Source of the DNA: a virus
Virus record (IMG/VR): IMGVR_UViG_3300030419_007436
Span: 64,001-128,000 of that record
Strand: one strand, 5' to 3'
DNA length: 64,000 bases
Of the stretch, positions 595-30,518 are shown in pieces. The position numbers were made by a program, and so were the translations under genes. The first letter of the stretch is position 1; every line of letters begins with the position of its first letter. The notes beneath the pieces were generated by a model. That model made no database searches and was not told the origin of the DNA. It worked only from the letters and a program-made list of their open reading frames with translations.

Positions 595-816
595 TTAGTT
601 ACTTATCTTTATATTATTAATTAATTCTAAGAGATCTTGAAGATAACTTTCAACAGTGCCTGGGTTGCTTTCCCATGTTTGCAGAAGATCTTTTACTTCC
701 GCCATCACTCCTTCAGCTTCCCTCAAATTATGTCTAGAGAGATGTAGATCGTGTCGTTCGTCTTCTTCGAATGCTTCTTTAATTAATTGCTTAAGTTTTG
801 ATTTTGTTAGTTTCAT
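595..816 (-). CDS. Small acidic protein with class I leader (MKLTKSKLKQLIKE)
   Basis: ORF track; shared N-terminal motif. Confidence 0.75.
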   Translation of the reverse strand: MKLTKSKLKQLIKEAFEEDERHDLHLSRHNLREAEGVMAEVKDLLQTWESNPGTVESYLQDLLELINNIKISN

Positions 817-825
817 AGTAGACTC

Positions 826-1053
826 CTATTTGTGTACGTCCTCGAAAATCTTCGGTTTGGAATACCCAGCAGCCTGCCGCAAGGAAACAATTGCAATTTC
901 CAGCTCTTTGAGAGCGCTGGCGCTATAGTTGCGCATAGCCTTAATCTCTTGATATGCTGCTACCGCATGTTGCAACGGATCATCGCGAAGCTGTTGCTGC
1001 TCTGTTATAACTTCTTTAATTAATTGCTTAAGTTTTGATTTTGTTAGTTTCAT
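826..1053 (-). CDS. Small protein with class I leader (MKLTKSKLKQLIKE)
   Basis: ORF track; first 14 aa identical to the 595..816 ORF. Confidence 0.75.
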   Translation of the reverse strand: MKLTKSKLKQLIKEVITEQQQLRDDPLQHAVAAYQEIKAMRNYSASALKELEIAIVSLRQAAGYSKPKIFEDVHK

Positions 1054-3893
1054 ATATTATATACCTCCTCTAAAGTTTCTTCTGTTGTTTCTTCAGTTTG
1101 AGGATAGTCCGGACTTTCTGGTTCTTCTCCAATTTGATCAGACATTTCTCCTTCGAATTTATCAAAATAAAGCTTAAGGTTTGTAAGTCCCCAGTCCTTA
1201 AATATATGCGCATCTTCAGGAGCAATTAATCTTTCATATGAGGAAACAATCTGCTGTTGTACATCATTCCATGCTTTTTCAGACTCTGAAGCCCCTTGTT
1301 GGACATAAGGGTCGTCTGAATCTAACTTTATAAACTCATTTTTTTCTTCTTCTTCATCTTCTTTTGCCTGCTCAATATCTTTAGATCTGGCAGGTAAAAA
1401 TTTCGACTCATCAGGTTCACTAGTGATATCATCTTGTTCGACTCCAACTTTAAAATCTAATTCTGCTAATTGCATTTGGGCGTCTCCGGGGGCCACTCTG
1501 TTTGCATCAATAGGAGCTAGAGCATTTTTGAAATTAACTAAAAAATGATATCTAAAAGATTTTCTTTCTTTCTCGCTCGATGACAAATTAGTATAAGCAT
1601 CTTCGATTTGCGTAATAATTCTTTTTAATAAATCATCTAAAACATTAATTCCAGTGTTTTTGTGTACAACTTTATCTGCCACTGCAGTTTTTCTATCAAC
1701 TTCCGGTATGACTTGGCGAATAACTTCTCCTAATTTACTTTCTTCAGAATGAATATTCTTTCTTTTTTCTTTTATAACTTTGATACCTTTTCTAATAAGT
1801 TTTCTTAGCCTTTCTTCTTCTGCATGCATTGAACTCACTCCTAATATTCTAAATAAATAGTCTTCTACTTCTCTAATTAACCCCTGTGGTTTGGCTTTAT
1901 CTCTCTTACCTGCACCCATCTCCGCAGCACCACCACCCATAGAAGAAGTTTCCTCCAACTCTTCATCGCAATCTTCTATATCTGGGTCACATTCCTCTCC
2001 ATCATCAAAACGATGTTTACCGGTATTATAATATCCTAGAGTGGCGCCCGCCTGACCATACATTCCTGTTAAACTCTCTTCTATCATCCGCAGAAAGATA
2101 CCCAGCGGAAGCTGGTTTTCCTCCAATTGTCTTAATTTATTTTTAATTAAATCATATATAAGCGGATCATAAAAACCCATTATTTGTTGAAATGATTCAG
2201 GATCTGAGCCTTTTAGTGCCGTCCTTAGTGTTGTACCAGACATTTCTCCGTGGCCCGGCACATCAATTGAAACATGCGGCGCAACTCCAATCTGCCATTC
2301 CCAGCCCTCATCTGTAGTGCCTTCTGTTTTTTGAAATCGAGGACTTTCTTTCATATCCTTTTCGCCAACTAAATAAACAACAGAATATTCTTCAGGATTA
2401 TAGTTCTGTAATATTTCTTTTGCGTTATATGGATTTTTTACTTTAATAATATTGTCTGATGAAATATCGTGAGATTGAATAATTTGTTTCTTTTCTTGAA
2501 AATTGAATGGAGATTTTGGAGTTCCTTCTTTTGTTGACATATCAACAGTATCTGATGTGGCAATAAAAACTTCATCATATTTTGGATCATTTAATATCTC
2601 TTTAAAAACTTCTGCATGATGTCTACCCATGGGCTGAAACCTTCCGGGATATACAGCAATAGTTTTCTTTTCAGTTACTTCACCAGATTCTTCAAAATCA
2701 TCTTCTATCTCAAACTCATAATCAATTGGCTCTTCAATAACTTCTGAGATTATTTCCTCTTCCTTATCAGCTTTAATCTTATCTTTTATTGCTCCCGAGG
2801 CGCCTTTTGTAATAAAATCTCCAGTCACTTTTACAGGTCTATCATCAATACCTCTAATAACAATACCTTCATGACCCTCTAAACCGCCTTTAGAGCTTGT
2901 TGAGGCGCGTTTAACGTCCATACCCAACTCATGGGTCGCGTGATTGAAAAGCGCGCCGTTAATGGCCGTTTTAACGTCTTCTGGAGTCTCTAACCATTCC
3001 ATAAGAGGTGTACCATTTAAAACGGCAAAATAAACCTCTTTACTTATTGCCCAAGCTGTTTTACCATCACGCTTTTGTACTTTTGCATCAAATGGGTTAA
3101 CTGCTTGAGATAACCAATCTTTTAATGGATAAGTTTCACTTTCTGTGCTTGTCATTTGTATAGAAAATGGAGTCGACAATGTTTCAGAAAAATCAACATC
3201 AGATTCTAATTGAGTTGAAACATCGCCAACCAAGCTAACTTCATGCTGTTCCGCGATAGGCTTCACTTTCTCAATAATAGATTCTAAAGCGCCCCGGTCA
3301 TAAGATATTTCTGTGCTGCCATGTTTTGTTGGTTTTCCGGTTTCTGGATCCACTGGTCTTTCTAATCCTGGTCGATCTATACCAATTCCTTTTCTAATTC
3401 TATGTGGTTGAGCCTTCTTTTCATAAAATTGATTGACGCCATGAAGGGCTAATATTTTTTCATCGTATTCAATTACGTTAGTTTTACCCTTTTTCATATA
3501 TTCTGTGTTAAAATATTTAGTGGGATCATCCCACATTCCAAGAGCTTTTAATTCTGGTTCAATTTGCGGCAGCGCTTCATTAAATATTTTTAGAAGCTCA
3601 TCAATTGCGGGAGGCATACCATGACCTTCGGGCCATTTTTTATAAGCATCGGCCGCCGTCATACCTCTAACAGATTCAGGTGCAGATGTGCCACGATCCA
3701 TCCTGAAGTCTTTTCCAGTTGGGGTAGATTCATCATCGACAAGTTTAAAGCTTACATTAATACCGTCAAACTTAACACTTCCGGGATTTGTAGAGAGATG
3801 TTCTGCAATTCTTTCGAAATAGTTTATTAAGTCTTGCCCTGTTTTGACATCTGGTATGTCAAATGGATGTTGCATATGTCCTGATGTGCCCAT
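1050..3893 (-). CDS. Multidomain protein: ligase-like nucleotidyltransferase domain, cytidyltransferase (HIGH-family) domain, acidic C-terminus
   Basis: KFDG, HEGIVIR and VKV resemble ligase motifs I/IV/V; YPGRFQPMGRHH and MSGTTLR resemble HIGH/KMSKS motifs. Confidence 0.6.
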   Translation of the reverse strand: MGTSGHMQHPFDIPDVKTGQDLINYFERIAEHLSTNPGSVKFDGINVSFKLVDDESTPTGKDFRMDRGTSAPESVRGMTAADAYKKWPEGHGMPPAIDELLKIFNEALPQIEPELKALGMWDDPTKYFNTEYMKKGKTNVIEYDEKILALHGVNQFYEKKAQPHRIRKGIGIDRPGLERPVDPETGKPTKHGSTEISYDRGALESIIEKVKPIAEQHEVSLVGDVSTQLESDVDFSETLSTPFSIQMTSTESETYPLKDWLSQAVNPFDAKVQKRDGKTAWAISKEVYFAVLNGTPLMEWLETPEDVKTAINGALFNHATHELGMDVKRASTSSKGGLEGHEGIVIRGIDDRPVKVTGDFITKGASGAIKDKIKADKEEEIISEVIEEPIDYEFEIEDDFEESGEVTEKKTIAVYPGRFQPMGRHHAEVFKEILNDPKYDEVFIATSDTVDMSTKEGTPKSPFNFQEKKQIIQSHDISSDNIIKVKNPYNAKEILQNYNPEEYSVVYLVGEKDMKESPRFQKTEGTTDEGWEWQIGVAPHVSIDVPGHGEMSGTTLRTALKGSDPESFQQIMGFYDPLIYDLIKNKLRQLEENQLPLGIFLRMIEESLTGMYGQAGATLGYYNTGKHRFDDGEECDPDIEDCDEELEETSSMGGGAAEMGAGKRDKAKPQGLIREVEDYLFRILGVSSMHAEEERLRKLIRKGIKVIKEKRKNIHSEESKLGEVIRQVIPEVDRKTAVADKVVHKNTGINVLDDLLKRIITQIEDAYTNLSSSEKERKSFRYHFLVNFKNALAPIDANRVAPGDAQMQLAELDFKVGVEQDDITSEPDESKFLPARSKDIEQAKEDEEEEKNEFIKLDSDDPYVQQGASESEKAWNDVQQQIVSSYERLIAPEDAHIFKDWGLTNLKLYFDKFEGEMSDQIGEEPESPDYPQTEETTEETLEEVYNI

Positions 3894-3902
3894 AAATTAC
3901 TC

Positions 3903-7899: not shown

Positions 7900-9030
7900 C
7901 TAAATAGTTTTCTTTTTTCCTACAGTAACCTTAAAACTTTTAAAACTTTTGTTTAAAGACTGATAAAAATATTTAGACCAGCTTTCAAACAAAAGTGGAT
8001 CCTTTTTGTTCTCATACATTGTTGGAATATGATGCTGTCTTGAAACATCTTTGCCGGTTATATTTCCTATGTATTTTTTTCTAAAAGCTGCTGAAGGATT
8101 TTTCTCGACACCCTTTGTGCTTTTTGAATAATCATTTGGCACAACATGCTCAGAACCATCTGGCATTTTTACCTTAAGATCATCTTTTATATTAATTTTT
8201 TTAGCTACTAATTCAACCCAGGAATCCCACAATTTTCGGGAGATATCATCAGCGCCCGTTTCCTTTGCGATTTGTCTTAAAAATTCTACATATTTTTGTG
8301 CTAGTTCGACTCCACCAGAAGTAAGTTTTATTATATTACTATCAAACTCACCAGCTTGAATAACTTTTTTACCAGATGCCGTAACTGATGGAGTTTTAAA
8401 TCCTTTATCTCCCGGGGTTAATATATTAAATTCTTGCGAAATACCTTTATAAATATTTAAATTAATTGAATCAATACAGCCTAAACGACCAATAATTAGT
8501 TGGGTGGCAAAAGCAGCTTTAGGTAAACCAAATCCTGGTAGTGTTATTGTTTGTAGATAAATATTAAATAAGGCCTCTTCTTTTCTTAAACCATTAGAAT
8601 TATTATACTCATCAAATAGAGGGCTGAAGCTGGAATATATGCTTTCTCTATTTTTCCACAAAAAATCAATTGCATGTTTCCTTGGTCCCATAACCAATTG
8701 TCCAAAGCCAGAAAAATCATATCTTGGTTTGTCTTCACCAGGATTCAATAAGTTTCTATCAGTCATTAATCCATCATTTTCATGAACAAAATTTAGTAAT
8801 ATTGGAAACTTTGGTACCACATCATACCATCTCATTTGTTGTGTGCCGATTACAAACATCAATACATCAGCTAATTGATCTGGAGAGTATTGTGCGTATT
8901 CATTTATAAGGGGATTGTATTTGCAAAAGCCAGAATCAAACTCTTTTGATAAATCTAATACAGCATCCTCAGAAGCTTCTTCTTCAGCTTCTTTAATATA
9001 CTCTCGCCAATTTTCAAATAGTAATTTCAT
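7900..9030 (-). CDS. HhH-GPD DNA glycosylase-like protein with class II leader
   Basis: Starts MKLLFENWREYIKE (ATG at 9030, TAATG overlap); PGFGLPKAAFATQLIIGRLGCIDSINL resembles the HhH-GPD hairpin plus catalytic Asp. Confidence 0.5.
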   Translation of the reverse strand: MKLLFENWREYIKEAEEEASEDAVLDLSKEFDSGFCKYNPLINEYAQYSPDQLADVLMFVIGTQQMRWYDVVPKFPILLNFVHENDGLMTDRNLLNPGEDKPRYDFSGFGQLVMGPRKHAIDFLWKNRESIYSSFSPLFDEYNNSNGLRKEEALFNIYLQTITLPGFGLPKAAFATQLIIGRLGCIDSINLNIYKGISQEFNILTPGDKGFKTPSVTASGKKVIQAGEFDSNIIKLTSGGVELAQKYVEFLRQIAKETGADDISRKLWDSWVELVAKKINIKDDLKVKMPDGSEHVVPNDYSKSTKGVEKNPSAAFRKKYIGNITGKDVSRQHHIPTMYENKKDPLLFESWSKYFYQSLNKSFKSFKVTVGKKKTI

Positions 9031-10421: not shown

Positions 10422-10952
10422 TCAAACGTTTTTTTCATACATTAATTCCCCTGATTCTTCTGCCTTTTGATTTCTTTCTTTTTCGTAAGCATTCCGCAAT
10501 TTTCCAAAAATACCGTAAGGATCGGAAGGGATTGCTTCGAGACCAGCTTCTTCGGCGTCTAAAATATCTTCTGGATCATCGTCATGGTGCATCGACGAGT
10601 TTAAATTTTTAAGAGTTTCAATTTTAGCGTTGCCATTGGTAAAATATACCCCATCTACATTTAATCCATGTTCATCGAGAAACTCTTGCACAGCGCGCTG
10701 CTCTTCATTTTCTAAGGATTGGGCCTCTCTGTCTTCATATCTGGAAGTCACAACATATACTACAACATCTGGTTCCCTAATAAATTCTTTAATTCTTTTC
10801 ATCATTGGCTCATAAGGGCCCGCGTGTTTCCATGTACCGGTTTCATCATTAAAATCTGATTTCGCCAAGGTATCATCAAAATCAAACGTAACAACTTTTT
10901 TTTCTTCTTGTTCGTTTAAATACTTTCGCCAATTTTCAAATAGGAGTTTCAT
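10422..10952 (-). CDS. HAD-superfamily phosphatase with class II leader
   Basis: MKLLFENWRKYLNE; VTFDFDDTL (DxDxT), VVTSR, K, HHDDD. Confidence 0.75.
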   Translation of the reverse strand: MKLLFENWRKYLNEQEEKKVVTFDFDDTLAKSDFNDETGTWKHAGPYEPMMKRIKEFIREPDVVVYVVTSRYEDREAQSLENEEQRAVQEFLDEHGLNVDGVYFTNGNAKIETLKNLNSSMHHDDDPEDILDAEEAGLEAIPSDPYGIFGKLRNAYEKERNQKAEESGELMYEKNV

Positions 10953-10955: not shown

Positions 10956-12791
10956 TTAATCCTCTTTTAAAAAGCCGCGCCAATTTTCAAATAGACAATT
11001 TAAATTATTATTTTTTTCTATACCCTCGTTCTGCGCAACTTCAATTTCTTCCTCTCCTTTATCAAACATTGCTTTCGCATATGCTTCAAGATTTTCATCA
11101 GAAAGTTCGTCGACAGCACCAGAAAATGATTTTGTAAAGTCTTCGTCACTCAAATCAGACCCTTTAATGCCTTTTGTTGCTTTTGTTAATTCTTTTCCAG
11201 GTTCATATTTTTTATCTAAAGGAACAATATCAAATTGCTTTATGCCAAAGACATTGGCTAAAAATTTTCTTTTCGCGTCCGTGGTTCCCCTTTTACTTTT
11301 TATAAATCTTTGCAAATCTTCTTTTGTTACTTTACCATCCGGGCCCGTCAATTCATTAAACATTTCTCTGTAAGCTTTTTTCCGGGCTTTTGACGCATAG
11401 TGTACACCGCTCTTGCACCCTCTAAATTTTCTTGTTCTTTCAAAAACGGATGTATAGGGTATACCATATTCTTTGGCGCCTGCTTGTAGCGCTACGTCTG
11501 CATAACCACGGTTTTTACTATATTTCGTACATTTACCACCAAAGGGAATTCCATAAAATATAATTTCGGTACCACCGTCTTGAAGTTCTTTTAATCTTTT
11601 CATTAATTTTTTTACTTCTTTAATTTTTGATCCCGTTGGATATATCCATTGTTCCTCTGTATTCGTTGCCTGCACATTGTTTCCTCCGGCTGAGCCTATA
11701 AAAACAACCTTTGCACCATCAGCTTTTTTAAGAGAATTTCTTATCCTTCCCAATGTGTATCCAATTTTAGACACATTAATAATTCTATTATCTTCACCAT
11801 ACTTTTTTAATAAAGAAGCTCCATGTCTCTTCCAATGACCGTATGTATTCGAGTCTCCGGCAATATATATTCTTGGCCAACTTTTCTGCTGTTTTTCTAT
11901 CTCTGTTTCAGCATAATCATCCCCGACTGCTTTTCCTCGGTATCTGTTCTGTACATATTTTGGGCACCATGGAGCATTAGGCACCTTTCCAGAAAATGTT
12001 CCGTATTCATCACATATTCTATTTCTCCAGCCAGTACGATATCGTTTGCTATATGCTACGCTACTTTTACATTTTTTTATTTTCTCTGCATCCGTTTTAA
12101 TTTTTCGGTACTTCTTATGATTTCTGTATTTATCAATATTATTTTCACACCAATTTGGATCTTCATATTTTTTTGTAAAGGCCCAGTTACCAGCATTCAT
12201 CATAACTTTATTGGCTTGGCTAATTTTTCCTTTATTAATTAATCTAACGAGCCTATTTGCAGTAACACTTCCGGGCCCCGCATTGAACATTCTAGATACA
12301 ATAGCCATAAACTGACCTTTTGTTGGCGCCACCGTGAACTTTCTCACCAAACCATATATTACTGCCATGGCATCATACATCTTTAATTCAATGGCTTCTT
12401 CTTTGGTAATTTTTTGTCCGCCATCTTTCCAATATGGCGCCCACCATTCTCCCATTTTTCCACCGGCAAGGTGCGATTTAAGAACGTGCCCATATCCAAT
12501 TGTTGCTTGCCCTACATGCCGCCCATTTACATAAAAACGATACCAACCATCTTTTCCAGGTCTTCTGTTTCCTTTGCTTTGCCACTTTTTAGGAGAGTGT
12601 TCACTATATACCCCCCTATAAAGGCCTTCCCATCGTGTAATTAAATCCACATCCCTTACACTAATATTTTTAACTAAATTAGTAAGCGCCTCCCTAACTT
12701 CTTCAGAGGCATTTTTATTAAATTGCAAACCTTTTTCAACTCTGCTGAGATGTCTATTTTTATAATAATCTAAAATTTTATCAATTGACAT
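10956..12791 (-). CDS. GH24/phage-lysozyme-like domain fused to SGNH/GDSL hydrolase domain
   Basis: WEG, TIGYGH, ITKEEA, FNAG (lysozyme-like); AGDS, GGNN, GVHY (SGNH blocks); ends LFENWRGFLKED. Confidence 0.6.
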   Translation of the reverse strand: MSIDKILDYYKNRHLSRVEKGLQFNKNASEEVREALTNLVKNISVRDVDLITRWEGLYRGVYSEHSPKKWQSKGNRRPGKDGWYRFYVNGRHVGQATIGYGHVLKSHLAGGKMGEWWAPYWKDGGQKITKEEAIELKMYDAMAVIYGLVRKFTVAPTKGQFMAIVSRMFNAGPGSVTANRLVRLINKGKISQANKVMMNAGNWAFTKKYEDPNWCENNIDKYRNHKKYRKIKTDAEKIKKCKSSVAYSKRYRTGWRNRICDEYGTFSGKVPNAPWCPKYVQNRYRGKAVGDDYAETEIEKQQKSWPRIYIAGDSNTYGHWKRHGASLLKKYGEDNRIINVSKIGYTLGRIRNSLKKADGAKVVFIGSAGGNNVQATNTEEQWIYPTGSKIKEVKKLMKRLKELQDGGTEIIFYGIPFGGKCTKYSKNRGYADVALQAGAKEYGIPYTSVFERTRKFRGCKSGVHYASKARKKAYREMFNELTGPDGKVTKEDLQRFIKSKRGTTDAKRKFLANVFGIKQFDIVPLDKKYEPGKELTKATKGIKGSDLSDEDFTKSFSGAVDELSDENLEAYAKAMFDKGEEEIEVAQNEGIEKNNNLNCLFENWRGFLKED

Positions 12792-13453: not shown

Positions 13454-13457
13454 ACTA

Positions 13458-14191: not shown

Positions 14192-14203
14192 TTTTTACCT
14201 CTT

Positions 14204-18140: not shown

Positions 18141-19859
18141 TTACTCCTCGGCAGCCCCCGGTGGTGCGCTTTTTATGTATTTTGAGCTACTTTTTGCAAC
18201 CGGAAACATGCCTGTGTCGGTTTTGTTCGGCCCTTGAGACCTTAATCTATTAATAAAACTACTATAAGTGCTTCTCGCGTGTGCAACAGAGGGCTCATTT
18301 GACATTGTTGGGTCTTTTTCTTCGTCCAATTCGTCTAAATCTTCCCAATCGAACGCATCAGGGTCGAAATATTCGAATTTTTCCTCCTTTTCGGGGTCAA
18401 ATTCGTCTTTTTCTTCACTTTTTCCTTGTTTTTGAGTAATTTTGTCCGAAAATTGGTCCAAAATGTTCTTTTTCGACTTAGAAAACACAAAAAAGAAGGG
18501 ATTTTCGTCATTTTCGTGTTCTGCACCCACTTTTTTCTCTTTTTCAACCCCATATTCGTTATTTTGCATGAATTTTGCCCAAACGCGCTCTGCGTCGGGA
18601 CTAGTTTCATAAGAATCGGGCGCTAAACCTTCTTCAGCTAGCTCTAGAGCCATCAAATACATGATTGTGCCCACTTTTTCGCTGTTTAGGGGCGAAGATG
18701 ACCACGCAACCTCCCAATGGGGCACATTTGTGCGTTTTTCAAGCGAAATATAGGCATTTGTACCCTCTTTTTTGCTTTCTACGGGCTCTTTTGTCACTGG
18801 ATCAAGTAAATTGATGGTGATTTCGCTTGGAGAGGTCGTAATGTCATATAAAAAGTCATTTGGGCCCTTAATTTCAGCATTTTCGAGAAATAGGCGCCAA
18901 TTTTTAGTTATATTTTCTTTCATTATCGGTGTTTCGGTATCTTCCGGCGCAGGATGCCATGTTTTTGCTATGTCATCGTCAAAAATAGCTGATATTCCTC
19001 TTCCCGCGTCTCTAGGGTTTTCTCCTGCGACTGTTCCTGCATCAGTTCCCAACCCAAAGCCCGGATCAAGTATAACAAACTGTTTTTTTCCATTTCTCAT
19101 GGCATATCCAACATTATATGGTCTAATATCCCATGATGGAAGATTAAATTGTGCTAAAAGGTCGCGAATATTTAATATAAGAGGATCATTAACTAGCTCT
19201 TCACCGTCGCCATAAGTTATTGTATGTTCTGCTCGCTTATCTATTTGTTTTGCAGCAACTTCAGGTATTGTTTTAGTGTTTATTAGTTTTTGAAACCAGT
19301 ACTGGAAATCTTCAGTTGGCTCATCTTTCCAAACAGGGAAAAATTCTTGCATTTCTTCCCAAGATGTTATATCTTTGACTTTTTCAGAAACAATCCAGAA
19401 GTAATCTTTGGCACTGTCATAGACTTTTGGTACTAAGTCAGAAGATGTTTGATAAAATGCTTGAGCTTCGTCCCGATTCATCTCCATACTTCTTCTAGAC
19501 TCTCTACCTTGATTAACCGCGGGCCCTACAACCTTTAAAACAAGCTCTGGGTTTTCTGGAACGTTAAAAGTGGCCCTAAAAGATCCTGCGCCAAGCTTGG
19601 TGTATCCCTCCTTCTCCATACAATCATAAAAATCAGGAGGAAAAACATCAATTGATTCATTTCTAAGATCTTTTATACATTGTATACTATCAGGATTCTT
19701 TCCAAAATATGTTTCACGTGACTTTTCCGGCGTATCATCATATTCATATGGTGCACTATATTCATCAGGTTGTGTCACACCAGGCTTTTGTACTTTTGTT
19801 GTTGCAAAAGGGTCAACATTTTCATTTAAAAACTGGCGCCAGCTTTTAAAAAAGCTCAT
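18141..19859 (-). CDS. Protein kinase-like domain plus GNAT-like domain, with class II leader and an internal leader copy
   Basis: Start MSFFKSWRQFLNE at 19859; LGAGSF, VLK, DIRPYN, ILDPG; GTIMYLMALE...SPDAERVW; internal NWRLFLENAE. Confidence 0.6.
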   Translation of the reverse strand: MSFFKSWRQFLNENVDPFATTKVQKPGVTQPDEYSAPYEYDDTPEKSRETYFGKNPDSIQCIKDLRNESIDVFPPDFYDCMEKEGYTKLGAGSFRATFNVPENPELVLKVVGPAVNQGRESRRSMEMNRDEAQAFYQTSSDLVPKVYDSAKDYFWIVSEKVKDITSWEEMQEFFPVWKDEPTEDFQYWFQKLINTKTIPEVAAKQIDKRAEHTITYGDGEELVNDPLILNIRDLLAQFNLPSWDIRPYNVGYAMRNGKKQFVILDPGFGLGTDAGTVAGENPRDAGRGISAIFDDDIAKTWHPAPEDTETPIMKENITKNWRLFLENAEIKGPNDFLYDITTSPSEITINLLDPVTKEPVESKKEGTNAYISLEKRTNVPHWEVAWSSSPLNSEKVGTIMYLMALELAEEGLAPDSYETSPDAERVWAKFMQNNEYGVEKEKKVGAEHENDENPFFFVFSKSKKNILDQFSDKITQKQGKSEEKDEFDPEKEEKFEYFDPDAFDWEDLDELDEEKDPTMSNEPSVAHARSTYSSFINRLRSQGPNKTDTGMFPVAKSSSKYIKSAPPGAAEE

Positions 19860-20334: not shown

Positions 20335-20484
20335 TTATTCGTTTTCTTCGTCTTCTTCGTCTTCTTCAAAGAGATGAGACTCATCTCTGCGCCCTTTATA
20401 TATAGGGCTCTCTGGTCATTCGCGAAGAGCGCTAATTTCTTCTAAAATTAACTCTTTTAAATAATCTTTTGTAAGTTTTTTCAT
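20335..20484 (-). pseudogene. Class I-leader ORF interrupted by an in-frame TGA (nonsense allele or readthrough)
   Basis: MKKLTKDYLKELILEEISALRE*PESPIYKGRRDESHLFEEDEEDEENE*; TGA at 20416-20418. Confidence 0.5.
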
Positions 20485-20495: not shown

Positions 20496-21284
20496 TTAAA
20501 TGTTGATTTTTACAATCTCACTTCCTATTCCATTAACTGACATCATTTTATCATATGACATAATTTTTAAACTAGATAGTTTATGTAAATAGTCGTTACG
20601 GCGCAGAACTTTATAAACTAAATTCTCAACAGAATATTCTCCGCCCTTTTCTAAACCACCTTGTCTAAATTTCCTTAATTTTTCTCGAAGCTTGTTGGCT
20701 TCGTCGTGTGCAAATTTATATTTTTTTTCTGCAAAATCATCGTATATATCATCAATGTGATTCATAAACTTTGCAGCTTTTTTCTTTACGTTGGCTTCAT
20801 CAATTTGTGGATTATATCTAGAAGGTGTTTTATTCCACCTATCATATTTTATTGAATAAACACCTGTAGAATGGTGTTGCTCTCTAGAATCCTGTACATA
20901 TAATTCTACATCATGGCCTTTAATTCTAATATTGTGGGTTTTGTTCCACATTGAAGAAACACTTCTAAAAAGATCTGTTACCAGCTTTTCATTTTCATCA
21001 ACTTGAGAATAATCTACCAGTATATGCAAATCCACGTCTGAATATCGAGACCAATTATAGTTTGCTAAAGAACCTGTTAGGGTAACATCTTTTACGAGAG
21101 ACCATTCTAGGCCTAAATTTTGAAAGAAGTTTTTTGCAATTTTATAAAGATGTTTAGAAATATATTCTTTTAATTTATTTTTTTCCCATATAACGGGATC
21201 TAAATTATCCTTAATTGTAAAACCAGACATTTTAACATCTTCAGGGTCTATAATCTCTTCTAAATATTCTTTAAAAGCTTTCAT
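20496..21284 (-). CDS. Pol-beta-type nucleotidyltransferase with T4-CTS-like N-terminus
   Basis: LTGSLANYNWSRYSDVDLH (GS..DxD) and DVELY; N-terminus MKAFKEYLEE. Confidence 0.75.
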   Translation of the reverse strand: MKAFKEYLEEIIDPEDVKMSGFTIKDNLDPVIWEKNKLKEYISKHLYKIAKNFFQNLGLEWSLVKDVTLTGSLANYNWSRYSDVDLHILVDYSQVDENEKLVTDLFRSVSSMWNKTHNIRIKGHDVELYVQDSREQHHSTGVYSIKYDRWNKTPSRYNPQIDEANVKKKAAKFMNHIDDIYDDFAEKKYKFAHDEANKLREKLRKFRQGGLEKGGEYSVENLVYKVLRRNDYLHKLSSLKIMSYDKMMSVNGIGSEIVKINI

Positions 21285-21288: not shown

Positions 21289-21744
21289 TTAGTTCCAATC
21301 TTCTTGGTCGTCGTCCCAAAGGCCCGCACTCTCTTCTGGTGTCATCGGAGTCGACGGACCTTCTCTGCGCGCCAAGGCCTCTTCTTTGTCATAACGTCGT
21401 CTAAGGCTCTCTTCGTAATCATCTTCTGGTTTTGAGAGTGCAGGGTCATGACCAAGCATTGAACTAGCTTGTTCAGCTATTGGCAAAAGAGCATCCATCA
21501 GCAATTCTTCAAATTCTAAAGCAAGATCATTTTCGTGCATTTGCCCAGGCCCATCGCCAATTTTACCTTCGGCTTCAAACTCGCTAAGTAATACATCTTG
21601 TAGGGCGCTAACAAGCTTATCATTTATTTGATACACAGGACCAGCAGCCCATTTCGATTCAGGGTGTACATCGTCTGGCCAATCAGCAGCCTCTCTAAGT
21701 TCTTCTTTAATTATTTGTTTAAGCCTTTCGATTTTAATACGCAT
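21289..21744 (-). CDS. Acidic hypothetical protein with class I leader
   Basis: MRIKIERLKQIIKEELREA. Confidence 0.7.
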   Translation of the reverse strand: MRIKIERLKQIIKEELREAADWPDDVHPESKWAAGPVYQINDKLVSALQDVLLSEFEAEGKIGDGPGQMHENDLALEFEELLMDALLPIAEQASSMLGHDPALSKPEDDYEESLRRRYDKEEALARREGPSTPMTPEESAGLWDDDQEDWN

Positions 21745-22014: not shown

Positions 22015-22635
22015 TTATCCCAGTTCCTTAATTATTTTTTCAACATCCCCATCATCATACACAATATATACATCTTCATCCAATCCAAGTACTTTTTCTT
22101 GCATGTCGCTGGCTTCTTGTCTGGCCCTAGAAAGTCTTTCTTCATATTCTTCTTGAGATTTATACTCTCCTTTATTTAGGCGCTTTAAATGTCGTCTTTC
22201 TAGCTCCTCTGTAGATGGAGGCGCCGAAAAAACAAGTATTAATTCTTTTCCGTATTTTGCTGCAACATTCCTTAAGTCATTCTCATCCTTACTTCCATCA
22301 ATACTTGTTTCGTCTGTAACTAATATTGCTTTTTGAGCATTTAAAAAATCTTCTAATTTTGTTCCATAATAATTACCACCGTATTGATTAGTATTAATTA
22401 ATTGTCCACTTTTGTCTTTTTCTAACCAGTCCTCTTCTGTTGTAAAATCATATTCAACATCTTCTTCGCCCCTCGGCGGGCGAGTAACTAATGAAACTAA
22501 TTCCTTCCATCCGTGTTTTTTAAATATATTTTTTTGTCTAGACTTTCCAGATCCAGATGGTCCAAATATGGCAACAACCTTACCAGATTTAGATTCTTTC
22601 AGATATTGGCGCCAGTTTTCAAATAAGAGTTTCAA
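22015..22635 (-). CDS. Guanylate kinase-like protein with class II leader
   Basis: GPSGSGKS P-loop, VTRPPR, NYYGT; TTG start. Confidence 0.8.
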   Translation of the reverse strand: MKLLFENWRQYLKESKSGKVVAIFGPSGSGKSRQKNIFKKHGWKELVSLVTRPPRGEEDVEYDFTTEEDWLEKDKSGQLINTNQYGGNYYGTKLEDFLNAQKAILVTDETSIDGSKDENDLRNVAAKYGKELILVFSAPPSTEELERRHLKRLNKGEYKSQEEYEERLSRARQEASDMQEKVLGLDEDVYIVYDDGDVEKIIKELG

Positions 22636-22844
22636 TCTTTTTTAAATCTCCTAAATGTGTAAGTATTCCATTGATCTAGTTGATTAGTCGTGTTAGATAA
22701 ATTCCATCGTTCTGGTATATTACAAACTGGTATTAGTGCATGCAAAAGAAATACAAGGCCTCTAAAAATTAAAGTTAATCCAATTTTACCAGCAAATAGT
22801 AGATGACTTAAGTAAGTCTCGTTATTTTCTTTTAGATGCATCAT
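22632..22844 (-). CDS. Small membrane protein (DUF6356-like)
   Basis: ETYLSHLLFA...LLHALIP pattern. Confidence 0.5.
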   Translation of the reverse strand: MMHLKENNETYLSHLLFAGKIGLTLIFRGLVFLLHALIPVCNIPERWNLSNTTNQLDQWNTYTFRRFKKD

Positions 22845-23749
22845 TATAACAATTCCTTTGTAATAGAAAGTGATTCTTCACTACTCGCAATTTCATCTGA
22901 AGTTAATTGTACATCCACACCAAGCTGTTTGAGTTTTTCATATTTTTCAGAGTTTTGCCAGTGAGCTTTAATTTCTTCCATGGTTTCAGAATCGTATTCA
23001 TCAACTAGTTGAACCAAGACAACGCCATTATTATCGATATTCATATTTTTTATTGGCATCTCAACGTAGTCTTCAATCATATTAATAATTTCCGGATCTA
23101 ACTCCGGAGTATCTACTTCTACTTTAACTAACTCCTTTCTTTCAGGGTCTAATCTATATCCTGTAATCTCAGGATCAACCTCTCCAACTTGATCAAAATC
23201 AAATCCTGGCAATATTGCTATTTTCTGAGGGGGAAAATACCCTCTATCTAAAAAGAAAGCAGCTTGGCCCACAACCTCTGTAAACAAGGCGCCTGCAGCT
23301 GAAGGAGGAACAGTCTTCATGTGAGCATTATAAGAGGCAATTTCTCCTTCAAAAGTAAAATCGGTATCTCTCTGACAGTGTGTCATATAATCGTGTACTG
23401 CTCGTAGCTTTAAATTTAGTTCTGGGCTAAATATTTGATGTTCTGTGCCACCTTTCCATATCTTTAGTATACCATTATTAAGGGCATCAGCACACATTTC
23501 TTTTGGCCCCTCATATGGATCTTCATCAACAAACTGTATATCCACTCTAGAAGATATTCTTTTGAACATTTTATCTACAAATGGCTCTATTGCTTCGAAT
23601 GCGCCAACAGCCTCTTGATCAAATATGGGAGCTTCATCATAAGCTTTCGCTACTAATTCTCTATATTTATCCCATCCATCAGGTCCAGGCTTGAGCATTA
23701 ACTTTTCTGTTAGTAGGAATTTTCGCCAATTTTCAAATAATAGTTTCAT
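22844..23749 (-). CDS. Conserved phage domain with HDxxxH motif and class II leader
   Basis: RAVHDYMTH...GE...H...FTEVVGQ...FPPQK; function unknown. Confidence 0.65.
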   Translation of the reverse strand: MKLLFENWRKFLLTEKLMLKPGPDGWDKYRELVAKAYDEAPIFDQEAVGAFEAIEPFVDKMFKRISSRVDIQFVDEDPYEGPKEMCADALNNGILKIWKGGTEHQIFSPELNLKLRAVHDYMTHCQRDTDFTFEGEIASYNAHMKTVPPSAAGALFTEVVGQAAFFLDRGYFPPQKIAILPGFDFDQVGEVDPEITGYRLDPERKELVKVEVDTPELDPEIINMIEDYVEMPIKNMNIDNNGVVLVQLVDEYDSETMEEIKAHWQNSEKYEKLKQLGVDVQLTSDEIASSEESLSITKELL

Positions 23750-24777
23750 TATTGAGCCCTTCTGACAAATATTTTTTCAGCTGCAATATTACCAATCGCT
23801 AACACCTCTTCCTCATCTCTAAAAGTTTTTAAAACATTGACTTTGTTTTTATCTAGCGTTTTGGCAACATCAATAAATTTATCTCCAGAGGTTTGAAAAA
23901 TAATTTCAAATCTATCGCCATGCGTTGCCGTTGTTTGATCAGCAAACCTTTCAGCTTGTTTCCAACTCTTTGTAAATGATTTTCCCCCTTCTTGTGCGGC
24001 TATCGTGATTCCTGATCCTGGAAGTTTAATTTCAACCCATTTACCCGGCTGGCTCCAGACTTCTTGAAATTGTTTTCTGAAAAAATAATCTGCAGAATTA
24101 GCAGGATTTGGTCCTTTGCCCGCGCGGTACGCAATATAATCAAGCGGTTTACGATTTTTAATTCCGGGAATATTTAATTGGTCTACTAGCTGCATGAAAT
24201 TATTTGCTCTAGCTCCTCGAAAAGCTTTTCCAGAATATCCGACTGCCTTTCCCTCTTTTGCCATTTTTAAAAGTCTATTCATATCTCCCCTTTTAAGAAC
24301 ACCAAAGCCTTGAGTAGTTTCCATATATATTTTGAGTTTTTCTATGGACACTTTACCCGCGTCGTCAATTTTGTTGGCCATTTTTGCGCCATCTGAGACT
24401 CCATCAAACATCTTTTTACCTTTATCGGTAACTGTTTTTGTGGTTCTCATTAATTTGGCAGCCTTTGCTGGCGCAGCGGCTTTTCCAAGTACAGGAATAA
24501 TTGCAAGAAGTGCTAAAAGCCATTCTCCTCCAGCCTTCATTGTTCTCTGATCGTTTAAATTTTTCGTTGCTGCAGCAAATTCTGGCCACGATAAAATACC
24601 TGTCGGTTCTACAATAGAAACAATTTGTCTTATTGTATCTGCCTGTTCAACGGTCATTTTACTAGAAAGGCTTACTAAGGCATCAAGAGTACGCTCTTCA
24701 GAAGGTCCGCCCATTCCTGTTATTTCGTTTAAAGATTCTTTTCTAAAATTTCGCCAATTTTCAAATAGTAGTTTCAT
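23749..24777 (-). CDS. ADP-ribosyltransferase-like protein with class II leader and pre-toxin-like hydrophobic segment
   Basis: AFRG / SFTKS..A..FA / EEEVL match the R-S-E triad; LLAIIPVLGKAA. Confidence 0.55.
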   Translation of the reverse strand: MKLLFENWRNFRKESLNEITGMGGPSEERTLDALVSLSSKMTVEQADTIRQIVSIVEPTGILSWPEFAAATKNLNDQRTMKAGGEWLLALLAIIPVLGKAAAPAKAAKLMRTTKTVTDKGKKMFDGVSDGAKMANKIDDAGKVSIEKLKIYMETTQGFGVLKRGDMNRLLKMAKEGKAVGYSGKAFRGARANNFMQLVDQLNIPGIKNRKPLDYIAYRAGKGPNPANSADYFFRKQFQEVWSQPGKWVEIKLPGSGITIAAQEGGKSFTKSWKQAERFADQTTATHGDRFEIIFQTSGDKFIDVAKTLDKNKVNVLKTFRDEEEVLAIGNIAAEKIFVRRAQ

Positions 24778-24987: not shown

Positions 24988-24988
24988 A

Positions 24989-25420
24989 TTAAAACCACTC
25001 TACATCTTTAAAAATATCTTTTAGTTGGTTAAAGAAATCAGAAATAACTTTTTTGTCTTCTTCTGATATTGCTCCGTTATCTGCAATTATTACTTTATCG
25101 TTTCCATTGCCGTCAACATATTTTACAATGCCTACTGGTTTTAAATTTTGAGATTTAGAGTCTGAACTGGGAGATATTACAAAGTCCCAGCCCATATTAT
25201 CGGCTGGATTAATTGCATCCGTCCACTCACCATAATCAAATGGCAGTTCTAGTTGTGTACCACCTTTAAAGGCCTTCGTAGAGCCTTTAGGACTATCTAT
25301 ATTACGATTTTGATTTGCTTCTGGATTTTGATTTAGATATCCAATTAGATTTTCATATGAATCTAGAGATTTTTCTTCTTCGGTGAGATATTGACGCCAA
25401 CTTTCAAATAATGTCTTCAC
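24989..25420 (-). CDS. Inorganic pyrophosphatase-like domain with class II leader
   Basis: MKTLFESWRQYLTEEE; PFDYG...ADNMGWDFVI...NDKVII resembles PPase motifs. Confidence 0.45.
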   Translation of the reverse strand: MKTLFESWRQYLTEEEKSLDSYENLIGYLNQNPEANQNRNIDSPKGSTKAFKGGTQLELPFDYGEWTDAINPADNMGWDFVISPSSDSKSQNLKPVGIVKYVDGNGNDKVIIADNGAISEEDKKVISDFFNQLKDIFKDVEWF

Positions 25421-25435
25421 ATTATAAGTAGTAGC

Positions 25436-26241: not shown

Positions 26242-26269
26242 TAAAAATAGTTATATAAGGAGTAATATT

Positions 26270-26752: not shown

Positions 26753-26761
26753 CTAACGCCC

Positions 26762-27016
26762 CTATTCAGGGCATTTTACTTGCGACCCAAGTGTACTTGG
26801 ATCAACGGGAGCCTTCAGTCTCACAGGGCTGCATGATCCTTGACCACAATACACCTTTAAGCGTGGATTAATAAGTTTAAACACCCCTTTTTCGTCTTGA
26901 TAGCATGGATATTCTCCTTCTTTCAGGAGTGTTTCTAACAGTTCTTGCTGTTCCAATATATGATCAGTTAAAGATTCTTTGATTAGTTGTTTAAGATTGG
27001 ATTTGGTTAGTTTCAT
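26762..27016 (-). CDS. Small Cys-containing protein with class I leader; paralog of 30258..30518
   Basis: MKLTKSNLKQLIKE; PCYQDEKGVFKLIN...KVYC...C..VRLK. Confidence 0.7.
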   Translation of the reverse strand: MKLTKSNLKQLIKESLTDHILEQQELLETLLKEGEYPCYQDEKGVFKLINPRLKVYCGQGSCSPVRLKAPVDPSTLGSQVKCPE

Positions 27017-27021
27017 GTTGT

Positions 27022-27336
27022 TTATCCTTCCCACACACTTTCACATGCACTAGGATCTCCTGAGAATTTCTGTAGTCCCAGCGTACGGACCGTATCTTCT
27101 TTGCCCCATTTTTCTAGATAGGCCCGGGCCTGTCTAGCATTATCTTCCGGAGTGTTTCTTCCACCAGCTGCAGCATAAAATTTACGTGCATTGGCAATTG
27201 ACCACCCTAGTTTACACAGCGGCACCTTCTGCGCATTAACATAAGCTAGCACGTTATCAGGATAGGGCTCTTCCATAAGAACGCTTCTTAGTTCTTCTTG
27301 GATAATTTGTCTAAGTTTTGATTTGGTTAATTTCAT
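27022..27336 (-). CDS. Small protein with class I leader
   Basis: MKLTKSKLRQIIQEELRSVLMEE. Confidence 0.7.
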   Translation of the reverse strand: MKLTKSKLRQIIQEELRSVLMEEPYPDNVLAYVNAQKVPLCKLGWSIANARKFYAAAGGRNTPEDNARQARAYLEKWGKEDTVRTLGLQKFSGDPSACESVWEG

Positions 27337-27360
27337 TTTTAGTTTTTTCCTTGTTGTTGG

Positions 27361-27636
27361 CTATAATAGAGGCCGTAAACCTATAGCTGATAGCTGCTCC
27401 TCATCCATCCCCGGGCGCATGGCACAACTGCGCACATCGCTAGCGGTTTTGGTGGCGTCTTGGCCAACACATTGAGAATTCCACAATCGCGAACATTTAC
27501 TCATACTATAAGCAGGTTCGCCCTGGGCCAATTCTTTACTTACCCTTACACACCAAGCGCTAGCTTCTTCTTCCATAAGAACGCTTCTTAGTTCTTCTTT
27601 AATAATTTGTTTAAGTCTGGATTTTGTTAATTTCAT
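27361..27636 (-). CDS. Small Cys-containing protein with class I leader
   Basis: MKLTKSRLKQIIKEELRSVLMEE; four Cys in the cargo. Confidence 0.7.
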   Translation of the reverse strand: MKLTKSRLKQIIKEELRSVLMEEEASAWCVRVSKELAQGEPAYSMSKCSRLWNSQCVGQDATKTASDVRSCAMRPGMDEEQLSAIGLRPLL

Positions 27637-27753
27637 AGAGGAATCTCCTTACTAATATTAAATAGTATAAAAATACACTAAATGCATATATTTCCTTGAC
27701 ATTATTCCGAGAGTCTGTTAATCTGTATATAAGAATAAAGGAGTTCATTCACT

Positions 27754-28185: not shown

Positions 28186-28187
28186 TT

Positions 28188-29201
28188 TTATTGGGGATCA
28201 TATTTTTTAACAAATTCTTCCCATGCTTTATATTTGTCAGAGCCCCCGTATTTCTGCGGCCCTAATCTTTCTATACGCCTTCTGAGTATTTTGGCCCGCT
28301 TCTTACGTCTTTCCGGTGGCAATGACGCCAAACGCTTGTACTCTCTTTGAGAAGCGATATTGCCTCCAAGATTAGGTACCTTGATTCCCCCAATTGGGTT
28401 CCCTGAATCAGGCGCCTGGCTTTTCTTTGGATTTTGCCCTGGAATACGTTTTTTCTTAAGGTTTTTTATAGCCTGCAACGCTTTTGATGCAGTTTGTTTA
28501 TCTGCTTCACCACTAGCGTTTTTTGATTGTGTGCGCAACGATGCAAGAATTTCTTGTCTCTTTTTAGGATCTCTTTCTGCATAATATCGATCAACCAGTC
28601 TTTGAATTTCCTTCGGGTTGACAGTTGCAGGTCCTTTTACTGTCGGCTTTGTTTTTGGATCAGCTTTTTTGGGCCCCGTTGGCGTACTGGATTTTGCTGG
28701 TGCCGCAGGCTTTTTAGCTGCGACTCCCTTCGGCGGAGGACCACCTCTATATTTACACCTAAACCATGTACGGTACGTTGCTCTTTCTGGGTGCTTTGCT
28801 GGCAGCTTTTTCCAGCCTCTGCGCAACGGAGGCCTAGGCCCACACTTACCAGACGTACGTCGACGACTTTTGCTTTTCTTGCTTTTTCTTTTAGTGCTAG
28901 TTGGTTTACCTTTCGTTTGCAGTTTTTTTAATGCAGCCATCCTTTCTTTATCGGTTTTGGTTTCTTTTTGTTTACCTCTATGATCTGCCCATGCTTTTCT
29001 AGAAGGTACCTGTCTTGGGGCTGTACCATCGGCAGGCGTGATCACGCAAAACCACTGCCCTGCTCTGGCGCCTTTCAGTGCTTTGGTACCGGGTGGGCAT
29101 GCATTTGCTGCTGTTACCTTTGATGCTTTTTCTTGTTCAAACAATATATTAGAGATTTCTTCTTGTATGATTTGTTTTAAGTAGAATTTGGTTAGTTGCA
29201 C
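28188..29201 (-). CDS. Basic, Pro/Lys-rich protein with class I leader
   Basis: GTG start, MQLTKFYLKQIIQEEI; GGAGG RBS. Confidence 0.7.
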   Translation of the reverse strand: MQLTKFYLKQIIQEEISNILFEQEKASKVTAANACPPGTKALKGARAGQWFCVITPADGTAPRQVPSRKAWADHRGKQKETKTDKERMAALKKLQTKGKPTSTKRKSKKSKSRRRTSGKCGPRPPLRRGWKKLPAKHPERATYRTWFRCKYRGGPPPKGVAAKKPAAPAKSSTPTGPKKADPKTKPTVKGPATVNPKEIQRLVDRYYAERDPKKRQEILASLRTQSKNASGEADKQTASKALQAIKNLKKKRIPGQNPKKSQAPDSGNPIGGIKVPNLGGNIASQREYKRLASLPPERRKKRAKILRRRIERLGPQKYGGSDKYKAWEEFVKKYDPQ

Positions 29202-29255
29202 AGGACGGCCTCCAATATATATAAATAGTACCTCGGCCCTTAAATCGAAAATTTT

Positions 29256-29462: not shown

Positions 29463-29557
29463 ATAGTAACTATTAACGCGAGATTCGAAAATATTTTTTT
29501 CTTAAGAGTTTAGAATAATTATTGTCAGCATCCAATTGAAGGGCAGATCTGCATGTA

Positions 29558-30076
29558 TTAATGCATGCGTTGGAATTGTTCTAATAACACATCTTTAATA
29601 ATGCGGCGTAGATTTTCTTCGAATGTACCGCTAAAGGTGGCACCGACGCCCTTACCTTTAACTATATCTCCGGCGGTACCCACGCCTGCCGCGCCTAATT
29701 TAACATTTCCTAACTTACTATGCATACCGGTAATCTTTGCTTTTGCAATATCTCCACCGGAGCGCTTCTTAGCTACTTTTGGCGTACGCATAATGATATT
29801 TTTGTTTTTTTCGTACCATTCTTTGTATTTAAAAAAATTGTCGCGCTGCTTTTTATGATTGCCCATCATAGACTCCGCCTTACAAAGGTGAGCTACGCCC
29901 GCTGCTTTGGCATATTTACAAAAATGTTTTACACTTTGGGTAGCTGCAAAACCATCACTAGCGGTTGCTAGGGCAATTGATTTAAATTCTTTATTTTCTG
30001 TATCTGCAGCTGGCGCCACAGCTTCATGTATTTCTTCTTGTATGAGTTGTTTGAGTGTTGATTTAGTAAGCTTCAT
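29558..30076 (-). CDS. Hypothetical protein with class I leader and leader-like C-terminus
   Basis: MKLTKSTLKQLIQEEI ... LRRIIKDVLLEQ. Confidence 0.7.
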   Translation of the reverse strand: MKLTKSTLKQLIQEEIHEAVAPAADTENKEFKSIALATASDGFAATQSVKHFCKYAKAAGVAHLCKAESMMGNHKKQRDNFFKYKEWYEKNKNIIMRTPKVAKKRSGGDIAKAKITGMHSKLGNVKLGAAGVGTAGDIVKGKGVGATFSGTFEENLRRIIKDVLLEQFQRMH

Positions 30077-30092
30077 AATTATAGCTACCCTT

Positions 30093-30167
30093 CTATTTGC
30101 AGCAGCCGCACTGGCAACAGCAATGCATTGGGTTAAGCCAATTTACTAAGCGATGTAATGTTTTCAT
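30093..30167 (-). CDS. 24 aa Cys-rich peptide MKTLHRLVNWLNPMHCCCQCGCCK
   Basis: Manual translation; GAGGAG RBS and ACTAGTTAT motif upstream; not in the ORF track. Confidence 0.55.
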   Translation of the reverse strand: MKTLHRLVNWLNPMHCCCQCGCCK

Positions 30168-30194
30168 GATAGTGTTCTCCTCTGTGTATAATAA

Positions 30195-30227
30195 CTAGTT
30201 CGATGCGCTAGATTTGGTTAGTTTCAT
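30195..30227 (-). pseudogene. Leader-only relic MKLTKSSASN*
   Basis: ATGAAACTAACCAAATCT matches class I leader DNA, then a stop after 10 codons. Confidence 0.5.
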
Positions 30228-30257
30228 TAGCTAATATACCCTTTTATTTAAGACACT

Positions 30258-30518
30258 TTATCTACTACACCCATCGCCAACCCACTCCCATTGATTTTTT
30301 AAAGAATCGCTGGGCTCACCCTTCAGTCTCACAACTCTGCATGGTTTTTGTTCACAATATACCTTTGAATATTGGTTATCCATATTAATAAGTTCAAATA
30401 CCCCTTCTTCGTCTCTATAACATGGATTTACAGCACCTTCCAGGAGTTGCTGTTCCAGCATTATATTTTGTAATTCTTCTTGTATGATTTGTTTAAGTTT
30501 GGATTTGGTTAGTTTCAT
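30258..30518 (-). CDS. Small Cys-containing protein with class I leader; paralog of 26762..27016
   Basis: MKLTKSKLKQIIQEEL; PCYRDEEGVFELIN...KVYC...C..VRLK. Confidence 0.7.
   Translation of the reverse strand: MKLTKSKLKQIIQEELQNIMLEQQLLEGAVNPCYRDEEGVFELINMDNQYSKVYCEQKPCRVVRLKGEPSDSLKNQWEWVGDGCSR

Follow-up and report, generated by a model that had tools for sequence, protein, structure and literature searches.

Two short N-terminal leaders shared by unrelated proteins of an uncultured marine T4-like phage: candidate capsid-targeting tags

The DNA analyzed here (the window, 64,000 nt) comprises bases 64001-128000 of a 190,629-bp IMG/VR virus genome, IMGVR_UViG_3300030419_007436 (G000), and encodes a set of mostly unrelated proteins that begin with one of two short leader peptides, class I and class II. 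The leaders are portable among cargo proteins, recur across related phages, have [LI]-x-E at residue 14 with the spacing of T4 head propeptides, and belong to genes that follow the promoter motif of the structural genes, in phages that encode a gp21-type prohead protease. The evidence tips slightly toward both being tags of the T4 capsid-targeting sequence (CTS) or propeptide type, which would load proteins into the head and be trimmed there by proteolysis.

Judged from its sequence, the source is a distant T4-like myovirus, uncultured and marine. Its structural set includes a gp23-like capsid protein, a portal, a scaffold-like protein and a prohead protease of the gp21 type (Peptidase_S77). 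The closest cultured relatives of the capsid protein are those of Flavobacterium phage immuto (49% identity), Microcystis phage Mel-JY01, and Rhodothermus phage RM378; a megablast search of the window against cultured phages gave no match. Three related genomes (G015, G004, and G001) were compared with G000.

Leader peptides and their cargo

All notable open reading frames (ORFs) in positions 1-32000 of the window are on the minus strand, so that the coordinates used in an earlier note on this DNA, which listed about 23 leader-bearing proteins, are the stop (low) ends, and the leaders lie at the true N-termini (high ends). Strict patterns matched class I ten times and class II nine times in the whole genome, always on the coding strand and in all but one case at a start codon. 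Hidden Markov models (HMMs) of the leaders, built from relatives only, recovered 12 sites of class I and 9 of class II in G000 at 12 bits or more, 21 of 21 on the coding strand and 20 of 21 at a start codon. The four genomes together have 64 such sites (21, 23, 11, and 9 per complete genome), vs. none in reversed six-frame controls, which excludes a chance origin; the scan of genome and relatives that the earlier note had called for thus recovered the leaders, with empty controls. An unbiased clustering of N-terminal 14-mers (896 ORFs from the four genomes) gave only these two non-orthologous leader clusters, besides a mini-gene family. The window itself holds ten intact class I ORFs, eight class II ORFs, and one nucleotidyltransferase (NTase) whose class II leader is a short form of 10 aa.

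The class I leader is about 22 aa long (M-K-[LI]-T-K-S-x-L-K-Q-I-I-K-E-E-[LI], with positions 19 and 20 hydrophobic and position 22 often Glu), and class II is 14 aa long (M-K-L-L-F-E-N-W-R-x-[YF]-[LI]-x-E); the sequence that follows is variable, acidic, and Pro/Gly-rich. Both classes have [LI]-x-E at residue 14, in agreement with the earlier description of leaders ending in (L/I)-x-E. When 148 diverse tagged proteins of both classes are aligned, K2 and E14 are the sole near-invariant positions after Met1, and hydrophobic residues at 8, 11, and 12 are common to the two classes along with the Glu at 14. In class II, position 12 is [LIVM] and E14 is present in 86-87%, though unconstrained by the search pattern; in class I the cutting motif occupies I12-K-E14 and L20-x-E22.

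This layout recurs in T4. As read from the T4 record, IPII and IPIII begin M-K-T-Y-Q-E-F-I-A-E, followed by Ala (the CTS sequence is confirmed in PMC8442874), and the gp24 propeptide ends ..I-N-E-L-L-R-E, followed by Ser. All three have hydrophobic residues at 4, 7, and 8 and Glu at 10, which is the i, i+3, i+4, Glu i+6 arrangement of the leaders. The core shared with the T4 CTS is aromatic/hydrophobic-x-x-aromatic/hydrophobic-[LI]-x-E, and the short forms share its 10-aa length as well. By this comparison class II would be an N-terminally extended version of the T4-style aromatic-x-x-aromatic-[LI]-x-E, and class I a hydrophobic variant with equal spacing. The NTase (20496-21284) begins M-K-A-F-K-E-Y-L-E-E, exactly as the earlier note had it; its resemblance to the T4 leader holds as to length and [LI]-x-E, and it belongs to class II. 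At 20 other loci its orthologues have leaders that start from the complete class II form of 14 aa and shorten to the T4 length of 9-10 aa, each closing with [LI]-x-E immediately before the conserved body, and this graded series ties it to class II.

Conservation of the leaders is at the peptide level, since the DNA upstream of tagged start codons is unconserved and synonymous sites within the leaders vary (conserved Leu positions use five to six codons, and Arg9 six). A Sec or lipoprotein signal peptide was ruled out: the leaders are charged and amphipathic, without a hydrophobic core of at least 10 residues after a basic N-terminus. Lipoprotein-type hydrophobic N-termini are found only on other ORFs (12998-16330).

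Degenerate DNA patterns of the two leaders matched 103 and 59 IMG/VR contig stretches, with many contigs carrying both. Among the 1.36 Mb of matched loci are 348 tagged ORFs, distinct and complete, which mostly begin no more than 30 codons from the upstream stop; together with the set from G000 itself, this makes 354 tagged proteins, which fall into 234 cargo clusters, 180 of them singletons. Three clusters mix the classes, the clearest case being one in which proteins of 108 aa (class I) and 98 aa (class II) have 58% identity over 79 residues (E 2e-30). Such swaps on homologous cargo argue for equivalence, and the two leaders appear interchangeable. The boundary between leader and cargo can be sharp: in the guanylate-kinase-like protein (22015-22635), the Pfam domain starts 4 residues past the leader. 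The statement that the bodies behind the leaders are non-homologous is mostly borne out, the exception within the window being a paralogue pair (26762 and 30258) found by clustering.

None of the 53 tagged proteins is common to all four genomes, vs. 37% of untagged ORFs, which marks the tagged genes as accessory. T-even internal-protein loci are likewise hypervariable, with diverse internal proteins that share only the CTS (PMC3012670). Recognizable cargo includes guanylate kinase, HAD/5'-nucleotidase, nucleotidyltransferases (including a tRNA CCA-adding type), NUDIX, HD, 2H phosphoesterase, RNase T-like exonuclease, polynucleotide kinase (PNK), protein kinases, and GNAT. Altogether 21 Pfam families were matched, nearly all by one member, and most cargo has no match.

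One cargo protein, the 342-aa class II ORF at 23749-24777, has a C-terminal half with a weak but consistent resemblance to ADP-ribosyltransferases (ARTs). Its AF2 model (pLDDT 68) gives as best Foldseek matches ARTs of the CT/PT type (E 0.03, prob 0.98), and the alignment has conserved R, S-like, and E-x-E positions; homologues retain class II leaders. The model makes a helix of residues 2-19, with pLDDT under 50 for residues 1-24. The ART-like cargo is counted in favor of capsid targeting, the head-packaged Alt of T4 being a protein of this kind.

Head genes, promoter context, and rival explanations

The prohead protease of G000 is a Peptidase_S77 of the gp21 type (PF03420, E 6e-25; phrog_207, 9e-45). 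An S77 protease was found in 10 of 10 tested leader-bearing contigs of at least 150 kb; the mid-size contigs tested are 24-36% fragments. The [LI]-x-E motif is enriched about fourfold in the scaffold-like protein and the capsid propeptide. The 424-aa scaffold-like protein, whose gene lies upstream of that for the gp23-like capsid protein, contains 23 [LI]-x-E motifs vs. 8.8 expected (z 5.4), or 5.4/100 aa vs. 1.25 genome-wide. The capsid protein has 6.7/100 aa in its first 60 residues vs. 1.3 in the remainder, and the capsid proteins of G000, G015, and G004 have L-R-E followed by A-S near the position of the T4 cut (L-T-E/A). In G015, a class I-tagged basic protein of 203 aa is inserted directly after the protease gene, within the head module.

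In G000 the position directly after the protease gene is occupied by a conserved protein of 133-147 aa (164764-165207; L113:8765-9208), with orthologues in G015, G004, and G001. [LI]-x-E is over-represented in it, and a loosely class I-like stretch, M-K-K-x-x-L-K-x-x-L-K-P-[IL]-V-K-E-C-[IL]-K-E, forms its N-terminus. The class I HMM gives head-core and scaffold N-termini 0.7-6.5 bits, a likeness by rank and not a significant one. This protein is a candidate prohead core protein, and possibly a docking partner or ancestor of the leader.

The promoter context is shared with structural genes. A late-like motif, C-T-A-[CT]-T-T-A-[TA] (A-C-T-A-T-T-T-A-T-(A/T)), lies 15-35 nt ahead of start codons, with 38 copies on the coding strand and 8 on the other in G000, and ratios of 27:10, 28:7, and 29:1 in the three relatives. 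In each of the four genomes it lies ahead of the scaffold gene, and also ahead of adaptor-like and tail genes, and it heads clusters of tagged genes. In the window (minus strand, by motif scan) it heads the run of class II genes (25424-25431) and lies 21 nt before the start codon at 27636 (27658-27665), 19 nt before that at 29201 (29221-29228), and upstream of that at 30518 (30535-30542). Further sites in G000 include 161759, 158195, and 152178. On the coding strand the T4 late promoter, T-A-T-A-A-A-T-A, shows no enrichment, and it was replaced in the analysis by the motif that the structural genes have upstream. Early sigma70-like promoters, with an extended -10 element T-G-A-G-A-T-A-A-T, number 18 on the coding strand vs. 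1 on the other. The earlier note had named equal occurrence of the leaders on non-late genes as a refuting observation; tagged clusters follow the structural-gene motif, and no tagged gene lies behind any of the 18 early promoters.

If both leaders are capsid-targeting tags, tagged proteins would be synthesized late, and an amphipathic N-terminal helix, with its hydrophobic residues at 8, 11, and 12, would dock the cargo on the scaffolding core during prohead formation. The S77 protease would then cut after the conserved Glu, at [LI]-x-E14 in both classes and in class I probably also at L-x-E22, and the cargo would be retained in the head and be delivered into the host along with the DNA. All of these steps, from late synthesis and docking through cutting to packaging and injection, are predictions. 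As for the earlier claim of capsid targeting, the in silico tests fit it (S77 protease, [LI]-x-E, enrichment in scaffold and capsid propeptide, promoter context). The idea of two address labels, if taken to mean separate routes, finds no support, the classes being exchanged on homologous cargo.

Several observations weigh against capsid targeting. No significant sequence similarity of the leaders to the T4 CTS was found, and the position following E14 usually has Glu or varies, while the T4 cut sites that were read and the predicted capsid site of this clade have Ala or Ser. Many identifiable cargoes are nucleotide and RNA housekeeping enzymes, normally cytoplasmic (guanylate kinase, 5'-nucleotidase, NUDIX, tRNA nucleotidyltransferase, PNK). 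The cargo is acidic (median isoelectric point, pI, 5.0-5.1, vs. 6.6 for all ORFs) where T4 internal proteins are basic; a pI above 8.5 occurs in only 11-22%, and the small, basic, DNA-associated profile of internal proteins does not describe this set. Heptad periodicity could account for part of the [LI]-x-E enrichment in scaffold proteins, which are helical and Leu/Glu-rich, and the motif called late-like owes that name solely to the genes it precedes. A tblastn search of the leaders against 50,697 phage records found no cultured phage that has them; the matches were one weak class I-like sequence (E 3) in an uncultured 484-kb record, LR756508, and chance matches in Microviridae. A full-text search of the searchable library for the leader motif strings found no paper, and one on CTS in marine or metagenomic T4-like phages returned nothing relevant.

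Some of the same observations favor the main alternative, that the leaders are docking helices, with no need of cleavage, for a hub other than the capsid interior: a cytoplasmic multi-enzyme complex like that of T4 for deoxynucleoside triphosphate synthesis, or some other phage structure. A cargo that is acidic and rich in nucleotide and RNA enzymes would suit such a complex, as would a leader modeled as a helix, if at low pLDDT. However, docking of this kind gives no reason for the near-invariant Glu14 and [LI]12 of two otherwise different leaders; it leaves unexplained the spacing match to T4 propeptides, the tagged gene within the G015 head module, and the promoter class held in common with structural genes; and no candidate hub was identified. 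It is considered unlikely. A role in proteolysis or folding is less likely again, and on the whole improbable: the leaders would be degrons for host ClpX or ClpA with a phage ClpP, or client tags for a phage GroEL, and would limit the lifetime of auxiliary enzymes or help to fold them. The class II leader presumably fits the loose pattern Met-basic-three hydrophobic residues. Classes of N-terminal ClpX degrons do exist (PMC12723719), and the phage encodes both a true ClpP and a GroEL; these are conserved in all four genomes, however, so that their co-occurrence with the leaders is uninformative and cannot discriminate. Early genes are where one would look for degrons, but none of the early promoters stands before a tagged gene, and the [LI]-x-E14 geometry, the graded series to T4-length forms, and the promoter class again go unexplained.

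The shared 5' ends might instead be recombination or expression cassettes, DNA or mRNA elements for gene swapping or translation, with no role for the peptide. Leader remnants, a C-terminal copy, tandem in-frame ORFs (all described below), and leader swaps do show that recombination occurs at or near the leaders; leader codon entropy is somewhat under background, and G000 also has a junction-based mini-gene system. But the amino acids are kept across the many synonymous codons noted above, the upstream DNA is unconserved, and a translation element would need neither a conserved Trp nor two distinct peptide classes, which leaves this reading with very little probability. Recognition of the leader by a dedicated modifying enzyme, in the style of radical-SAM RiPP systems, is the least probable of all: radical-SAM (PF04055) is absent from both G000 and G001, which have leaders, and the tagged clusters contain no conserved enzyme gene. 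On the former ground a radical-SAM recognition tag was rejected.

Returning to capsid targeting, a wider reading can be put forward tentatively, as possible but doubtful: that marine T4-like phages load a large, fast-changing arsenal of enzymes into their heads by means of a portable address tag that can be read from sequence, for co-injection. The arsenal would include ART-like, kinase, nucleotidyltransferase, NUDIX, 2H-phosphoesterase, and RNA-repair proteins, each virion type having 10-20 or more of them and the clade as a whole hundreds of families. In a bolder version, class I and class II might bind different core partners and so reach different doses or head positions; this draws on the class I sequence, weakly similar to that with which the conserved protease-adjacent protein begins, and on the T4-like aromatic core of class II. 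If the leaders act like the T4 CTS, they mark capsid-carried proteins that act in the first seconds of infection, in abundant uncultured marine phages, a class usually beyond the reach of genomics. Action like that of the CTS would also mean that the size of the system turns internal proteins from a T-even curiosity into a major accessory system. Were the arsenal reading true, the injected proteome of uncultured phages could be predictable from the genome alone. With CTS-like action, too, the leaders would be candidate packaging tags for engineered protein delivery in phages of hosts other than E. coli.

Tagged genes, remnants, and neighboring loci

The ten intact class I ORFs (minus strand, like all features of the window below; bits are leader HMM scores) begin with two adjacent genes, 595-816 (73 aa, 35.5 bits, no Pfam match) and 826-1053 (75 aa, 29.8 bits). 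Their first 14 codons are DNA-identical (42 nt) and their bodies unrelated, which points to a recent leader-only duplication or gene conversion. The others are 16749-17735 (328 aa, a divergent leader at 16.2 bits), 21289-21744 (151 aa, 20.7 bits), 26762-27016 (84 aa, 30.9 bits) and its paralogue 30258-30518 (86 aa, 36.5 bits), 27022-27336 (104 aa, 35.2 bits), 27361-27636 (91 aa, 38.8 bits), 28188-29201 (337 aa, GTG start, basic with pI 10.9, 17.7 bits), and 29558-30076 (172 aa, 32.7 bits).

All eight class II ORFs of the earlier list were confirmed. They are 7900-9030 (376 aa, 32.8 bits, its start overlapping the upstream stop by one base, with no Pfam or PHROG match); 10422-10952 (176 aa, 34.6 bits, HAD/5'-nucleotidase-like by a weak PF06189 match), whose orthologues retain the leader in a region-restricted homologue search (43 candidates scored); 16390-16740 (116 aa, 22.5 bits); 18141-19859 (572 aa, a divergent leader at 15.9 bits); the guanylate-kinase-like P-loop protein introduced above (206 aa, TTG start, PF00625 5e-14 from residue 19, leader 30.3 bits); 22844-23749 (301 aa, 27.1 bits, phrog_3170 4e-22); the ART-like protein (19.3 bits); and 24989-25420 (143 aa, GTG start, 28.1 bits). 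The NTase with the short form matches PF01909, and its leader is assigned by the orthologue series.

Four of the 23 earlier entries do not stand as tagged genes. Two listed as class I are truncated leader remnants: one of ten codons at 30195-30227, recognized by sequence, and one of 22 codons at 20416-20484 (10.4 bits). The latter is a leader-only ORF that stops (TGA) exactly at its L-x-E, after which the frame is open for 26 very acidic codons, to 20335; it may be a decayed gene, or possibly one expressed by read-through. The two divergent class I members at 3903 and 63270 found no support, 63270 scoring 2.0 bits (rank 50 of 945 ORF N-termini) and 3903 falling outside the top 75. Conversely, the earlier list omitted two class I genes outside the window (G000 136800-137636 and 184238-184669) and a class II copy at a C-terminus (10956-10994, 19.9 bits).

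This C-terminal copy closes a 611-aa lysozyme and GDSL-like protein (10956-12791; lysozyme PF00959), which ends ..L-F-E-N-W-R-G-F-L-K-E-D, then stop. One codon past that stop, in the same frame, the next gene begins with its own class II leader. The copy looks like a recombination scar or fused remnant; no homologue of the protein bearing it was found in the relatives fetched. Single in-frame ORFs of the form leader-cargo-leader-cargo occur in G015 (141777-142631, L181) and G004 (109460-110887, L189), and another G004 ORF (112565-113194) ends in a class I-like copy. The tandem ORFs could be polyprotein-like fusions, split by a Glu-specific head protease, or could have lost stop codons. Remnants, C-terminal copies, in-frame fusions, and leader swaps together indicate recombination at or near leaders.

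Other loci in the window are noted for completeness. The lipoprotein-type ORFs at 12998-16330 are four consecutive predicted lipoproteins or membrane proteins among the tagged genes, one of which, 708 aa long, has five MopE-type metal-binding repeats (PF11617, 1.5e-19). A conserved module at 47443-51371 encodes the phage GroEL, an unknown 537-aa protein, and the true ClpP (PF00574, 3e-26); G015, G004, and G001 each have a second, weaker ClpP-like match. An unknown 358-aa protein (52070-53146) lies behind a late-like motif, as does its G015 counterpart; the two align over only about 34 residues, with a conserved N-terminal ..L-L-K-E-x-T-[IV]-R-R-F-M-[KR]-L-A.

Relation to known systems

The CTS of T4 internal proteins was reportedly the subject of work by Mullaney and Black in 1996. 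In T4, IPI, IPII, and IPIII, all of them internal proteins, and Alt have a CTS that is removed by the gp21 prohead protease (PMC8442874, PMC3012670, PMC5694885), as propeptides of 10-20 residues (PMC5694885). The present leaders are alike in being short N-terminal peptides (10, 14, or about 22 aa) on unrelated, fast-evolving accessory proteins, in their [LI]-x-E end and hydrophobic spacing, in the company of an S77 protease and a scaffold core, and in the ART-like cargo. They differ in their sequences, which are new and fall into two apparently interchangeable classes; in number, with about 20 tagged genes per genome rather than the three T4 internal proteins that share the CTS (PMC8442874); and in a cargo that is for the most part acidic and has many nucleotide and RNA enzymes in it, with a residue after the Glu that is not Ala or Ser. 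The T4 shell proteins gp24 and gp23 also have propeptides (10 and 65 aa) cut at L/I-x-E: gp24 shares the i, i+3, i+4, Glu i+6 layout, and the capsid protein of this clade has its L-R-E and A-S near the region aligned with the gp23 cut. These are essential proteins of the shell, however, while the tagged proteins are accessory, with 0 of 53 in all four genomes.

In giant phages related to phiKZ (SPN3US, 201phi2-1), ejection or inner-body proteins have long propeptides that are cut at A/S/G-x-E by a gp21-related protease (PMC5694885, PMC10052503). As would be the case here, a related protease cuts after Glu in many of the proteins packaged into the head, and paralogues can have identical N-termini; but the propeptides often exceed 100 aa, the cutting rule is another, and there is no single portable tag. 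The MuF polymorphic toxins of temperate phages similarly join a constant N-terminal head-packaging module to variable effector domains, but that module folds into a domain several hundred residues long and is not a cleavable peptide.

The PeSL cassettes of T4-type hyperplastic regions, and the mini-gene junctions of G000, resemble the tagged loci in that small accessory genes are rapidly gained, lost, and shuffled at a repeated sequence. In those systems, however, the repeats are intergenic DNA or regulatory elements, whereas here the repeat is a translated peptide kept across synonymous change. The logic appears the same as that of the T-even CTS; the differences are new leader sequences, their two apparently interchangeable classes, their presence on about 20 genes per genome, and a cargo that is acidic and enzymatic.

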